Shown: piece after piece, positions 42,183 through 48,019 of the stretch
How positions within the stretch are numbered: position 1 is the stretch's first letter
Layout: each line of letters opens with the position of its first letter
From: Phoronis australis
Taxonomy: Eukaryota; Animalia; Phoronida
Reading direction: 5' to 3'
Length of the DNA stretch: 64,000 nucleotides
Assembly: GCA_002633005.1 (NCBI GenBank)
Contig: NMRA01000067.1
Span: 914,440 to 978,439, forward strand
The notes under the pieces: generated by a model
What the model saw: only the letters and a program-made list of their open reading frames with translations
Told to the model about the DNA's origin: nothing
Database searches by the model: none
Translations under genes and position numbers: made by a program

Positions 42183-42683
42183 GATAAACGGAGCTTACAT
42201 ATCACAAAAGTATCATAGCAGGTTGGCAATAAGGGGCAGACTTTCGCTTTGGTGATTAAGCCAAATCAGGGCCTAGTGGGCCAGCATTGCGCGGGGGGGT
42301 GGTTAAAATTTCTAGAAAAATAAGGTGAACCTTTTGATATCTTACAAATGACTCAACATTAGTTTTCAGCAAGGCCCTGGACGCTGCTTAATTATGGTGA
42401 AGGGAAATCTGTATCCGTGGCAACGATGGCTCTCAGGTCTATGTTCCAGAGATTAGACGAAATTAGTAATACCAAAAATGAGGATGCCGTGCACGGTTGC
42501 TCACAAAGAACGAAACTCAGAAGTAATGTGGTCCACAAATAGAACACTCTCACATTACCTCCTGCCATATTTTGAAATCAGGCTTTATTAAATGAGTGAT
42601 TACACCTCATTACATACTCGAACGGAAATATTTGGTAGAATGGCTTTGCGTAATTTTTCATCTGATTGCATTTTAGTTAGTTA

Positions 42684-42926
42684 GTGGTGTGGTGTCTTAG
42701 ACACAGGGTTAGATGTGTAGTTAGTGTAGCTTAGTGTAGTTAGTGCTTGCACTTTCTAGCTTTCAGCTTCTACGACCACCTAGTCCTCTGAGACGAATTA
42801 GGAAGGCATATATAAGACCCGCCTTGGTGGCTTTTAACTACCTCTAATCAAGACTCTTGCAGTACCTCCTCGTGGTACACCATGGTAACTGGGCACCTTG
42901 CTGCCCCAGGCTAAATTTTGCAAGGG
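42684..42926 (+). ncRNA. HDV-like self-cleaving ribozyme with long J1/2 insertion
   Basis: P1 GTGGTGT(42684-90)/ACACCAT(42877-83) with G1-U wobble. P2 CTCTTGCAG(42854-62)/TTGCAAGGG(42918-26). P3 ACC/GGT with L3 TCCTCGT. P1.1 CC/GG(42884-85). P4 CTGGG/CCCAG. J4/2 GCTAA, catalytic C42911. Confidence 0.8.
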
Positions 42927-43330
42927 ATCTCGGAAGAGGTTAGGCTCTTAAAGGTGCAACGTGCATGACCCATCGGTGTATGGATATGCTCTGGCGTTCA
43001 CCAACCTAACTCCCAGCTATGGGCAAATAGCACCCTTCATTGGTTGGGCTCAAGACTTACTACCTTGTCCCGTAAAATACTAGCTTTTTGTGGCTGAGCG
43101 GACGTGGTGCCTTTCAGATGCTCTCCACATCCCTGGCACTCAACGGTCAGAAGAACTGCAGGGAGCTGCAGGTGGAGCCGACCCCCCCATCAGAGTGGAC
43201 GAAGTGTCTGTTGGATACCTTACTTGTCCTACGCACTCAACGTTCAGAAGGGCAGGAGACGACGGATTGTCTTCTTGGTCAGGGGTCCGGGAGAGGTCAC
43301 TCCCGGCTGCCACATTGTGTCAGTGAACAT

Positions 43331-43574
43331 ACCGGTGCGTGGCAGTTTACCGATTCTAAGCCATCACCTCATCGGCGTCGGGTGGGCGTCAGGGGCCACG
43401 CATGACGGTGGGAGGGGTTCTTTAACCCTTATTGGTCAGTTGCCGCCCGCCTTAAGCCTGGCAGCCCCAGGCCAGTAGGGAACTGACCCGCCGCGGTTAG
43501 CCTGCCCCTTTGGGCGTAGGGGGCTTAGAGGTTGTTACAACCTCGACAGGCTTATCGTTACTCCATCGCCTGCT
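43331..43574 (+). promoter_or_regulatory. Putative dicistrovirus IGR-like IRES driving non-AUG initiation at GCU 43572
   Basis: SL-IV-like AGGGGTT-CTTT-AACCCTT. SL-V GCCTGG-CAGCC-CCAGGC. Helix GGTCAGTT/AACTGACC. Domain 3 AGCCTG/CAGGCT with 7-nt loop TGGGCGT pairing to CGCCT(43567-71), followed by in-frame GCT. Confidence 0.7.
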
Positions 43575-46500
43575 TCAAGACTTATTACAGAAGTAAACGT
43601 CCATACGGATGCTGGACGGCGCTACTGGGAAAGTGCAGCCGGACAGAACATCCGCCGTGGCGCCAGAAAGCGCGGACCTAGAAAGAAACGTAGAGGTAAA
43701 AGAGCTGGCAAACGAGCCCGTCAACTCAAGTACGAAAGACTTCAACTCAACCGTCTCAGGATTGGTTACTGTAATATACGTGGCATACGGGGCAGCAAGC
43801 ATATACTGGATAAAATCTGTGCGGGCTACGACATTCTCCTGTTTCAAGAAACCAAACTCAAAGACCTAACAGACTTTGAACTCGAAGGTTTCATTTTTCC
43901 TAGAGAGGGCATCACCAATGGCCTGGCGTACGCAATCAACAAACACAGCCACACCATGGTAGAGCTTGTGGATACTCACAGTTTCACTACCACTGACAGG
44001 CAACTACAGATTATAAGTATCACTGATCCTGGTTTCTGCGACCCATTCACACTAGTCAATCTGTATATACGGGGAAACTCCTCCCCTAGTTGCGACCATT
44101 GGAATTTTCTTCACAATCTGCTTCACATCTATCCCGACATTCTCATTGTTGGTGACTTTAATGCTCGTCATTCCAGCTGGGATGTCTACGGTGTGAACCC
44201 AAATGGTAAAGGTCTCGCCGAATGCCTTCCAGAACTAGATTTATATATTCTCAACTCTGGTGAACCCACTAGGATGGCTGAGAGACCGGGTGACAAGGAC
44301 TCGTGCATTGACCTTGCTCTGTGCAGCGACAATCTTCGCGACCGTGCTAAGTGGCGCAGGAGTTGTCAAGCTGGAAGCGATCACTACTTGTGTGAAGTTC
44401 AACTACACCACCAATTAAAGGCTCCAGTAACGACTTACAAACGGCCCTACAATAATACCGAAGGGGATAAAATCTGGAAATCAGTGTGCAGACACGCCAA
44501 AAGCTTACATAAGCACGTATGCCACCACAGGAAGCAGAACCCCCCTACTTGGTGGAATAAAGATGTTGACACTGCCTGGGCCAACAAGCGCTCCAAAGAG
44601 CGGGATTTTGATCGTGCACGTCAAAACTGCACACCGGAAGAGTTCACGGTCGTCAGAACAGCCAGAAACAGGGCCACTGCCCTGTTCAAACGCTCAGCAT
44701 CCGAGGCTGCCAATCGTCGATGGGATGAGCTTTGCAGCCGATCCAACTTGACAGCTACAGATTTCTGGCACTTCCATCGTAACATGGACAAGAGACGTGC
44801 TCCCCCCAGATCCATCCTACTGAATGCAAGCAACACCATTCTCAGGAATGACAGGGAACAGGGTGAGGCTTTTCTCCTGCGTTTCATCCAGCAAAGTGAC
44901 CACAGTGATGAATCTGAAAGAAACCTCCTCATCCAACAACTAGATGGACTTTGCAAGACAGCTGAACAGGACAGTCAATTCTCTGCAGCAGAGGTTGCGG
45001 AGGCTATCAAAACTTGCAAAGAGGGTGCCCCTGGCCCCGATGGCGTGAGAGTCCTGACACTCAAGTCTTTGCCTGACTTTCTGCTGGCCAAGCTTGTGAA
45101 GTCCTACAACGTCAGTTTGGCCACTGGAATCATCCCTCACATCTGGACAGATGCCTTCTTAATTCCTGTACCAAAACCTGGAAAAGACCATCGTGCACTC
45201 AAGGGATATCGCATCATAGTGATGCAGAACGTCATTGGAAAAATCCCTGAAAGGATCATGGCGCAAAGAATCACCAAGTTAATTGAACCCTGGCTCCTCC
45301 CAGGAATGGGTGCTTATCGACCTGGTAGAGATTCATGGGCCAACGCAGCTTCTGTTGCGGATGAGATATGGCAAGGTTTTGAAAACAAAGAAAACACTCT
45401 CCTCGTTGGCCTTGATCTAGAAGATGCGTACAATTCTGTTCAACTTCCAAAACTTGCGGATGGCATGCTTCATCTCGGTATTCCTGTACGATGCATTAGA
45501 TGGGTGATGAGTGCCCTCAACAGCCGGCGATGCATGCTAAAACATCGTACATGGCGTTCAGAATGGGTATCTGTCAACACAGGCTTACCCCAAGGTTCAC
45601 CTCTGTCCCCAGTGCTGTTCAATATCTACACCCTCCCACTCGCCAGACTGAACCGCGCTGACTGCCGACTTCGCACCTTTGCAGACGACATGCTGCTGTC
45701 ATCGCAAGGACAAACACATCATGAGATTCTCCACAAAGCACAGTCTTCATTGATAAAAATATGCGAGTTTTGTGCTACCAGCGGAATGAGCTGCAATGGA
45801 GACAAATGTGAAGCTCTCTTCTGTACTCTGGACAATCGCCTCAGTGTTGATGATTTCCCTTGCCCTACCTACGATGGGAAGTTGATTGCTACATCTGACC
45901 ACATGCGTCACTTGGGTGTAGAACTTGACCGCAGGCTCAACTTCACAACTCAAGTTAACAGTATGATCAGCCGTGCCAACAGAGGAATCAATGCCCTTAG
46001 GGCTGCGGCTGGTCGGAAGGCGGAGGAAAGGCACCTCGTCATGCTTTATAAAGCCCTGGTCACTTCGATCTTCGACTACGCTCTCCCCATGATCAACATC
46101 AGTAAAAATCAAATCAACAGACTTGAGAGGCTCCAGAACATTGGTCTTCGCGTCATCACTGGATGTACGAGAACTACGTCAGTCACAGCATTACGTTACC
46201 TTGTCGGTATTCCCAGCATTGCAGACAGACAATCCCTTCTACAAGGTATTACTGTAGCCAAGGCTGTTCAAAGCCCCTTCCATCCATTACACAGTCAAGT
46301 GAAGACTGCACTTGACAGGTGCGTGAACTCCGTCCCTGCAACAGAAACTTATGGACTTCGTCCTAGACCTTTTCGCAATGCCTCCCACCAAAGACTTAGC
46401 AGGTGCTCGTGGACTGTCGCTGCTGTTAACGCAACCATGGGTCTCATCGGCGAACACATGATCGCGCAAGTTGCTGCTTGGCTGCCAGTACAAGAACTTG

Positions 46501-47273
46501 GTGAGGAACCGAATGTCATCATTGCTTTCAACAGGGAAGCTCGGGAATGGCCTCCTGGAGTAGCCCAAGCATTGTGCCGTCAGCAATGGCGTGATCTTGG
46601 CGGTATTAATGCCATCATTGTAGCAACTGATGGATCCTTCGATGGTGAAACTAATCGTGCGGGATGGGGCTATCAAATACGCTGTGCTAACAACGTCATT
46701 GCAGAAGGTAGTGGCTGCCACCATATATCCACAAGCAGTACGCGGATGGAGTTTGAGGCTATACAACGAGCCCTAACCAAGCTGTCACTCCTAGACCTGG
46801 AGAATCACACCATTATCTTTGCCACCGATTCCATGGCAGTGTTGATGAAAGTTCAATCTGGAAACCTCCCAGCCAACTGGGGTGTCTTCCGATCACGCCA
46901 CCCTCATCATGTGGTGATCTGGTCTTTCGTACCTGGCCACGCCGGTGTCTTGATTAATGAGCGTGCAGATTACCTCGCTGGCTCATGCACCACCAACCAA
47001 CCCCTCTACTTATATTCGGCTGACGTTAAGCTGCTGGCTCGCAAACGCAACCACGAGCAGACTGCATCCCAGCTGGCTGAGTTCAATGATGGCAGCCGCC
47101 TGCTCGAAGCCGGTATTATTTATGGCCATGCTGCGAAGAGTCACAAGAAGGGCCGTGCCCAAGTGCTATCTAATCATATGCTTACAGGCAACGTCAGCCC
47201 TGGAGTTCTGCGCCTTCTGCTGTCACGGGGATGGTCTGGGGAGGGGATTAATGCACCAGCATATCCCCAATGA
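43572..47273 (+). CDS. Retrotransposon polyprotein: basic N-terminus, AP endonuclease, reverse transcriptase, RNase H (~1233 aa from the inferred GCU start; 1105 aa from the first ATG at 43956)
   Basis: Frame is open from 43479. APE: LRIGYCNIRG, DILLFQET, GDFNARH, IDL, SDH. RT: PGPDG, YR.I, DLEDAYNSV, GLPQGSPLSP, FADD, LGV. RNase H: TDGS, E.EAI, TDS, PGHAG..NERAD. Start position is inferred. Confidence 0.93.
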   Translation, partial: ASRLITEVNVHTDAGRRYWESAAGQNIRRGARKRGPRKKRRGKRAGKRARQLKYERLQLNRLRIGYCNIRGIRGSKHILDKICAGYDILLFQETKLKDLTDFELEGFIFPREGITNGLAYAINKHSHTMVELVDTHSFTTTDRQLQIISITDPGFCDPFTLVNLYIRGNSSPSCDHWNFLHNLLHIYPDILIVGDFNARHSSWDVYGVNPNGKGLAECLPELDLYILNSGEPTRMAERPGDKDSCIDLALCSDNLRDRAKWRRSCQAGSDHYLCEVQLHHQLKAPVTTYKRPYNNTEGDKIWKSVCRHAKSLHKHVCHHRKQNPPTWWNKDVDTAWANKRSKERDFDRARQNCTPEEFTVVRTARNRATALFKRSASEAANRRWDELCSRSNLTATDFWHFHRNMDKRRAPPRSILLNASNTILRNDREQGEAFLLRFIQQSDHSDESERNLLIQQLDGLCKTAEQDSQFSAAEVAEAIKTCKEGAPGPDGVRVLTLKSLPDFLLAKLVKSYNVSLATGIIPHIWTDAFLIPVPKPGKDHRALKGYRIIVMQNVIGKIPERIMAQRITKLIEPWLLPGMGAYRPGRDSWANAASVADEIWQGFENKENTLLVGLDLEDAYNSVQLPKLADGMLHLGIPVRCIRWVMSALNSRRCMLKHRTWRSEWVSVNTGLPQGSPLSPVLFNIYTLPLARLNRADCRLRTFADDMLLSSQGQTHHEILHKAQSSLIKICEFCATSGMSCNGDKCEALFCTLDNRLSVDDFPCPTYDGKLIATSDHMRHLGVELDRRLNFTTQVNSMISRANRGINALRAAAGRKAEERHLVMLYKALVTSIFDYALPMINISKNQINRLERLQNIGLRVITGCTRTTSVTALRYLVGIPSIADRQSLLQGITVAKAVQSPFHPLHSQVKTALDRCVNSVPATETYGLRPRPFRNASHQRLSRCSWTVAAVNATMGLIGEHMIAQVAAWLPVQELGEEPNVIIAFNREAREWPPGVAQALCRQQWRDLGGINAIIVATDGSFDGETNRAGWGYQIRCANNVIAEGSGCHHISTSSTRMEFEAIQRALTKLSLLDLENHTIIFATDSMAVLMKVQSGNLPANWGVFRSRHPHHVVIWSFVPGHAGVLINERADYLAGSCTTNQPLYLYSADVKLLARKRNHEQTASQLAEFNDGSRLLEAGIIYGHAAKSHKKGRAQVLSNHMLTGNVSPGVLRLLLSRGWSGEGINAPAYPQ

Positions 47274-48019
47274 TCCTGTCCGTGACAGGTATTACAGGTA
47301 TTACAGGTATTTAGTTATACTTACATTGCTTAAATCACTGGACATGGGAACAGCCCACTATTCCGAAGGTTCGCTACTTCGAAGTTTCGATATTCCGAAG
47401 GTTCAATGACAACGAAAATATCTAAAACTTCTGACTCAGGTGCAACTGTTACACTTTTACATCCAAAAATAAATGACACTTCTGTTAAATAGATGCAAGT
47501 ATACCAAAAATAACGCACGAGTAATAAATCACTTTGTTTGAATTTCATGCGCATGCGATATCGTCCGCATGTCTTAGGAGCACTGAAAAATAAGTACGTA
47601 CTAGCATTTCTGAAAGAATGTGAAGTATTATGTTGATGAATAATCAACCACAATATATTCATCAAATCCATGTCAAGATTGCATCGTTTCACAGCCCGAC
47701 TAAAGAGTTTAGGGCTGACTAAAAAGTTTAGGGCAGCTGTGCTGCAACCTTACCTACCAGAAGTACTCGCACGGCAGGGTCAAAAATAAATGTTAAGTTA
47801 GTAGGCGAATCCTGTCCCTGCCAGTCTTCATGAAAGTCTCATTCAGTCTTCTTAAAAGAGAATGCCACCCGATTTAATTAGTCTTTTTTACCGTCTTAAT
47901 CGGTCTATATCCACATCGCCTATTATAAGGTCAACCTCACCTTGCCGAGAGGTGTCATGTTAACCTGTGAGGAAGGTGAGAAACGACGCAGCGACGTCAG
48001 TGGTTCGTCTGCAGAATGA

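Follow-up and report, generated by a model that had tools for sequence, protein, structure and literature searches.

A predicted type 6b-like intergenic-region IRES in the 5′ leader of a non-LTR retrotransposon lineage

Introduction

How LINE RNAs that are uncapped and carry no AUG at the head of their reading frame are translated is an open question. A concrete non-viral case is offered by a locus in a 64,000-nucleotide stretch of Phoronis australis DNA (contig NMRA01000067.1, positions 914,440 to 978,439; hereafter, the window), to whose forward strand all coordinates below refer unless another locus is named. According to the accessible parts of PMC6765202 and PMC3708506, L1Tc/Ingi and R2 likewise have a single ORF, a 5′ HDV-like ribozyme and an uncapped RNA that needs cap-independent initiation, and L1Tc likewise encodes APE, RT and RNase H; those parts report no defined type 6 fold for either group.

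The initial annotation of the window had proposed that an RNA fold of the dicistrovirus intergenic-region (IGR) type precedes the ORF of a non-LTR retrotransposon, and that such a fold was not known from retrotransposons. The literature agrees with the second point. A search of freely accessible paper listings and abstracts turned up no description of a type 6 IRES in any retrotransposon, and the words retrotransposon and transposon are absent from the main texts of PMC12221177 and bioRxiv 2024.04.17.590008; TSA entries in the supplementary tables of the latter may include such elements. What exists is speculation: in the accessible part of a 2013 commentary (PMC3894237), it is remarked that the occurrence of IGR IRESs in non-LTR elements would call for a revised view of what their ORF2 comprises. 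Recent IRES surveys regard the origin of type 6 IRESs as unknown and know of no similar cellular RNA. Here we propose that a triple-pseudoknot RNA like a type 6b IGR IRES likely starts translation of this LINE without AUG, initiator tRNA or initiation factors. This function is read from the structure of the RNA and from its position.

Results

The locus contains a full-length non-LTR retrotransposon of about 4.63 kb with a single ORF (42684..47310). Contig matches begin at 42684, and their ends are loose before this position. Empty-site joints (42679 to 47326) were found in DNA and RNA runs of the same species, and the 7-bp target duplication TTAGTTA is present at 42677-83 and 47311-17. The 3′ tail consists of three ACAGGTATT units (47285..47311). 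The insertion sits within another repeat (42500-42683 and 47311-47500). The ORF at 43479-47273 is the sole long ORF of the window, and Pfam assigns APE, RT and RNase H domains to it. The predicted first codon, GCT at 43572-74, is in frame with this ORF, as the initial annotation had stated; from this codon the product (43572..47273) has 1233 amino acids, comprising a basic N-terminus, APE, RT and RNase H. The first in-frame ATG (43956) is codon 129 counted from GCT and lies inside the endonuclease, of which the APE match begins at residue 68. The ATGs from 42700 up to 43956 all lead into short ORFs or ORFs in other frames.

The organisation is Ingi-like, namely one ORF with APE, RT and RNase H and without ORF1. 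Ingi uses 2A peptides (accessible part of PMC3708506); in contrast, a 2A motif was not found in the N-terminus of the ORF translation. Neither EDAY nor DLEDAYN, the RT signature, occurs in any RTclass1 entry of PMC3708506 (supplement file 2), so that the RT motif differs from those of the Ingi entries there, and the RT tree described below took in no named Ingi protein. We treat the element as an unnamed APE-RT-RNase H lineage and do not file it as Ingi. In three RNA runs from the same species, reads map thinly, on both strands and mostly at the 3′ end. Many RNA reads start at 47085 and 47172 with host sequence before them, and represent 5′-truncated copies in transcribed host regions.

At the 5′ end, an HDV-like ribozyme fold is predicted (42684..42925), whose helices we checked by coordinates. 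P1 (42684-90 with 42877-83) has 7 bp, the first of which is G-U; a second register beginning at 42689 (42689-95) fits equally. P2 is formed by 42855-61 and 42919-25, P3 by 42864-66 and 42874-76 with TCCTCGT in L3, and P4 by 42890-93 and 42905-08; GG at 42884-85 and GGCTAA in J4/2 complete the core. Thus P1-P4, P1.1, L3 and J4/2 are all present, and the predicted cut site is the 5′ end of the element. The match to Rfam drz-agam-2-2 is weak (13.9 bits, E 1.7, under the gathering threshold). The same core with a changed P3 is found in the related locus L003. Self-cleavage would follow from this predicted fold at the element end and, because such a ribozyme stands at the 5′ end, the element RNA is probably uncapped, by extension from the accessible part of PMC6765202. 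In one family (L026 4370-4560, L039 2350-2560 and L005 at about 600-780), the 5′ part is unlike the window ribozyme and has a ACCTTATCGTGGT core, so the 5′ ribozyme may have been swapped or be of another kind. Directly upstream of the L039 copy lies a fragment of another LINE (L039 1905-2340), which by eye we take to be Vingi/Ingi-like.

Between the ribozyme and the IRES-like fold, the leader (43012..43303) aligns with those of L002, L003, L026 and L039 through short motifs: CCCAGCTATGG at 43012, CAACGG at 43141 and GGAGAGG.CACTCC at 43290. The motifs CCAGCTATGG, CAACGG (twice) and GGAGAGG.CACTCC are kept in four of four families and possibly belong to another structured RNA module.

The IRES-like fold has three domains, and the eight helices listed by the initial annotation all pair at their coordinates by Watson-Crick or G-U pairs, with the loops CTTT, CAGCC, TGGGCGT and TTA. 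Domain 1 (43335..43403) contains P1.1 (43335-43/43395-403) and P1.2 (43360-68/43381-87), L1.1a with TTACCGAT (43347-54) and L1.1b with GTCAGG (43388-93), the last partly paired; the loop of this domain supplies the 5′ strand of PKII, CGGCG (43373-77), the 3′ strand being 43489-93. Domain 2 (43407..43493) contains PKIII (43407-12/43446-51), SL-IV (43413-30), P2.2 (43434-41/43481-88) and SL-V with the CAGCC loop (43456-72). Domain 3 (43499..43571) is closed by P3.1 (43499-504/43547-52), which encloses an anticodon-like hairpin (43505-23) and SL-III (43528-44); a variable loop (43553-66) leads to PKI, in which GGGCG (43512-16) pairs with CGCCT (43567-71). The initial annotation had warned that the PKII and PKIII pairings have alternatives. 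For PKII this holds, as CGGTG can form a nested pairing with the PKII 3′ strand.

The stability of these 244 nt is unremarkable (z -1.02; 29 of 200 shuffles are as good), and the MFE fold of the window sequence lacks domain 1. Therefore, one sequence alone would not prove the fold. The proof of the fold is comparative, made by covariation in four families and by the descriptor described further below.

Protein searches found eight clusters with 45-55% identity; a sister group, which includes a member from Aplysia californica, reached 30-32%. The metagenome scan gave 61 loci. Among loci whose 5′ part is intact, the whole fold is present in three families besides that of the window, represented by L002, by L003, and by L005 together with its decayed kin; from L036 only the 3′ end is available. 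Between the four families, the fold region is 55-70% identical. We aligned five rows, two of which are related, so that only four families are independent; in this alignment, pairing holds in 94.1% of the 290 cells and both sides are changed in 17 of the 58 pairs, a result reached by none of 500 shuffles, and slid controls pair at 45% or less. It should be mentioned that the structure was partly selected on the same sequences, which biases the count toward the fold. Two-sided changes affect six of nine pairs of P1.1, four of eight of P3.1 and one in the SL-V stem. SL-IV, SL-III and the inner part of P1.2 differ in length and stand outside this count; checked by coordinates in each family, all of them pair. 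The SL-IV stem (5-8 bp) differs in every family and carries a T-rich loop (CTTT, TTTT, GTAT/TA or ATTTT), SL-III has 5-7 bp in the four families, and P2.2 is uninterrupted over 7 bp in the alignment.

The initial annotation had proposed a covariation test of all three pseudoknots, and they behave differently in it. PKII covaries: its sequence differs per family and pairs with its own partner by 5, 5, 7 and 7 Watson-Crick bp (shuffle p 0.14, 0.09, 0.006 and 0.011, respectively). In the MAFFT set, L002 PKII lies one column off and the count above takes it as unpaired; in two decayed copies, the PKII pairing was not found. PKI and PKIII are invariant among the retroelements: together with CAGCC, they do not vary in intact copies of the four families, and the 3′ strand of PKI is identical in the fifth (L036). 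This invariance indicates constraint without giving a covariation signal. Thus GGGCG/CGCCT and CAGCC are kept in all intact relatives while other helices covary, the outcome by which the proposal had been meant to stand or fall.

A covariance model of the retroelement RNA was run on 66 sources and gave 15 full, two partial and one cut-off match, five of the matches being its own training rows. The distant loci L049-L066 gave no match; in many of these, the 5′ end is missing. A GTDB scan returned mostly bacterial RTs and a few stray LINE contigs; L063, L064 and L065 are eukaryotic LINE contigs inside bacterial MAGs, likely by binning contamination. In a quick RT tree of 44 of 75 rows, the IRES-bearing rows fall within one 14-row clade (SH-aLRT 99), in which eight rows are without DNA.

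In five of five families, the CCT with which PKI ends shares the frame of APE, and this frame is open without a stop in eight of ten copies (L005 and L027 are frameshifted). Because CCT is in frame over 59-76 codons across the families, indels in this region keep the frame. The codons after CCT are GCT, ACA, GCA, GAA and ACT; this agrees with viral type 6 IRESs, for which Ala and Thr first codons are reported (PMC12221177, accessible part). An in-frame stop lies 6-7 codons upstream of CCT in three families, and protein similarity of the N-termini begins about 10 codons past CCT. In the basic region upstream of the first Met, variability by codon position is 0.40/0.44/0.63, the third position being highest; in the first block it is 0.29/0.21/0.35, with a weak third-position excess. 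The first N-terminal block, HTxxGxRxxVxAAG (43602-43646), is unusually conserved also at the DNA level, and an RNA signal may thus lie here, downstream of PKI. Sister proteins have a related RRSYGxRA motif.

These data bear on a rival reading, in which a genuine fold, derived from or shaped like an IRES, now has a different role (for instance, binding of the element's own protein or protection of uncapped RNA), while an AUG or near-cognate codon farther downstream is used to begin translation. In R2, a pseudoknot in the 5′ part of the element RNA is a binding site for the R2 protein (PMC6765202), and a tombusvirus-like genome has a type 6 fold that binds ribosomes and does not translate (PMC12221177). 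Several relatives do possess a Met just before APE; Met residues ahead of APE lie at codons 44-74 in L002, L036, L026 and L003, past the start of the conserved protein, and at codon 3 in L039. However, no ATG precedes APE in the window, L021 or L033, and no AUG or near-cognate codon common to all families was found. Moreover, the CCT frame survives indels in all five families, and what stays invariant is the loop that contacts the ribosome, along with the tRNA-mimicking part. We therefore judge such a role improbable as the explanation of the fold.

Six related proteins outside the 14-row clade have a Met 9-13 codons before the shared motif RRx[YD]G, which the IRES start precedes by 14-16 codons. 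Three of these Mets are internal and three are first residues, which may be gene-caller starts; only P0169 is in the tree. Because the Met of the sisters, which are known as proteins, lies at about the same position, this result suggests that the fold replaced an AUG.

For comparison with viruses, viral contigs were scanned for motifs, giving 120 stretches, 80 of them with flanks; the search pattern itself required GGCAGCCCCA, TGGGC and GCCTG. Five viral loci are dicistrovirus IGRs, judged by the downstream capsid. Among loci with a dicistrovirus capsid downstream, L145, L160, L162 and L205 have the parts in the same order as the retroelement; L145 is presumably Israeli acute paralysis virus and L205 Taura syndrome virus. 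Two features are free of the search pattern. The L1.1 strings are GTTACCCAT/GTAAGG in the viruses and (G)TTACCGAT/GTCAGG in the retroelements, and the fifth (last) PKI pair is A-U or U-A in the former and G-C in the latter.

A descriptor of the three domains, whose ranges were chosen with knowledge of both sets and relaxed once (the first version gave no full pass among the five viral loci), was passed in full by the window, L002, L003, L005, L145 and L173 and in part by L205, L033 and L039, while L160, L162, L026 and L027 failed. Thus it wholly fails on two of five viral loci, and four decayed retroelement copies are without a full pass. None of 74 decoy sites with the same motifs and none of 1000 flank shuffles passes, and each full pass points to CCT|NNN in frame.

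The initial annotation had likened the fold to that of cricket paralysis virus (CrPV) as well as to Taura-type IRESs. By the published class criteria (accessible part of bioRxiv 2024.04.17.590008), the presence of SL-III and the continuous P2.2 make the retroelement RNA type 6b-like. The CrPV-type (6a) assignment, with no SL-III, an A/A mismatch in P2.2 and UGUGAUCU/UGCUA loops, was rejected, as SL-III is present, P2.2 is continuous and the loops differ. The likeness to type 6b (Taura syndrome virus, Israeli acute paralysis virus) extends to the order of PKII, PKIII and PKI, SL-IV with a U-rich loop, SL-V with CAGCC, the uninterrupted P2.2, SL-III in domain 3, a GGGC/GCCU PKI core right before an in-frame non-AUG codon and related L1.1a/L1.1b strings. 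The L1.1 consensus had been described as not evident; this needs correction, as 6b-like motifs are present, in their cores only. Against the 6b motifs UGGUUACC (L1.1a) and UAAGGCUU (L1.1b), the retroelements have AG(T)TTACCG, AGTCACCG or AGCTACCG together with GYCAGGG, so that the cores agree and the full motifs differ; in L1.1a, the part ahead of the motif is also reduced in length, and L1.1a pairs in part with L1.1b. Further differences are the location (the 5′ leader of a chromosomal LINE, behind a ribozyme, and not between two viral ORFs), the GC-rich sequence of about 240 nt with a 6-bp SL-V stem, and SL-IV loop letters that vary, whereas the viral loop (AUUU) is highly conserved. The viral 6b examples are shorter than the retroelement RNA by about 40 nt (CAGCC to CCT, 87-93 versus 101-107 nt), but the latter stays within the 260 nt reported for type 6 IRESs.

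This likeness could also have arisen by convergence on the ribosome surface, the IRES having evolved independently in the retrotransposon with its own factor needs. At the level of models, the match to viral IRESs is not significant: our covariance model found nothing significant in the 80 viral loci (best 6.7 bits, E 0.43, noise level). Neither a close viral donor nor relatives of the LINE protein were found in the viral contigs; a search there for SL-V and P2.2 of the retroelement type gave one hit, which was rejected as not IRES-like by eye. In addition, stems and spacers are longer, and the L1.1b string GYCAGG is similar to G(U/A)CAGG, the motif of type 6d, as well (PMC10275262). An Rfam scan gave no IRES hit in the window or L003, and at E up to 1 it gave nothing for the four genuine type 6b viral IRESs (L145, L160, L162 and L205). 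The blank is uninformative because the same scan misses these four real loci. On the other hand, about ten elements occur in the same order, with CAGCC, the GGGC/GCCT PKI core, SL-III and 6b-like L1.1 together, and among the viral type 6 classes, too, identity drops as low as 26% (bioRxiv 2024.04.17.590008). On balance, we regard independent origin as quite improbable.

Flatworms have a spliced leader that ends in AUG. That the AUG comes from cis- or trans-splicing, or that the ribozyme drives initiation, the fold being incidental, is very hard to credit: ACAG|G in P3.1 resembles a 3′ splice site in four of five families and HDV-like ribozymes are reported to promote initiation (cited in PMC6765202, accessible part), but L003 has no AG in P3.1, no splice joint is listed in the leader in the three RNA runs (at a depth of 0-4, too low to exclude splicing), the ribozyme and several out-of-frame ATGs lie upstream, the former by 650 nt, and both ideas leave the covariation unexplained.

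Discussion

We thus return to initiation directed by the triple-pseudoknot RNA itself. By analogy with viral type 6b IRESs, the LINE RNA would be transcribed as part of a host transcript, from which the ribozyme would excise it, leaving an uncapped end. SL-IV and SL-V would contact the 40S subunit at its head, and L1.1 the L1 stalk of the 60S subunit. In the A site, PKI would imitate the pairing of a codon with its anticodon; its shift to the P site would be the work of eEF2, and GCU (Ala) would be the first codon read. It should be mentioned that a fold does not guarantee activity, because four of eight predicted type 6 folds from outside the dicistroviruses gave no translation in reporters (PMC12221177, accessible part).

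As for the origin, one sub-clade may have acquired the RNA, with a dicistrovirus-like virus as the likeliest source, and the RNA would have taken the place of the AUG that its sister elements carry. Type 6 IRESs have moved into Tombusviridae, Marnaviridae, Narnaviridae and picorna-like viruses (PMC12221177, bioRxiv 2024.04.17.590008), where they are likewise mobile modules set in frame ahead of an ORF foreign to them, in some cases within a 5′ UTR; all reported cases are in viral genomes, whereas here the recipient is a LINE. Precedents for exchange between viruses and LINEs, in the accessible parts of the sources, are 2A peptides (PMC3708506) and SF1 helicases (PMC5563155), which are protein parts, whereas here a structured RNA is concerned, one that would take over the task of initiation. 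Capture by a LINE from a virus is likelier than transfer from a LINE to a virus. Taken as a whole, a clade-wide, factor-free type 6b IRES combined with a self-cleaving ribozyme, sharing descent with those of dicistroviruses and being the first in cellular genomes, is in our estimation a probable description of these elements.

The fold is real and conserved, and it is likely a working factor-free IRES in a LINE, which would make it a known RNA machine in a new kind of host. The case offers natural compensatory variants and a predicted N-terminus that gene callers miss. The new GC-rich IRESs may serve as tools. It also provides evidence of exchange of RNA modules between viruses and transposons; if the transfer had gone from LINE to virus, it would bear on the origin of type 6 IRESs. 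If the proposal is true, the element would be translated during shutdown of eIF2-dependent translation in its host.
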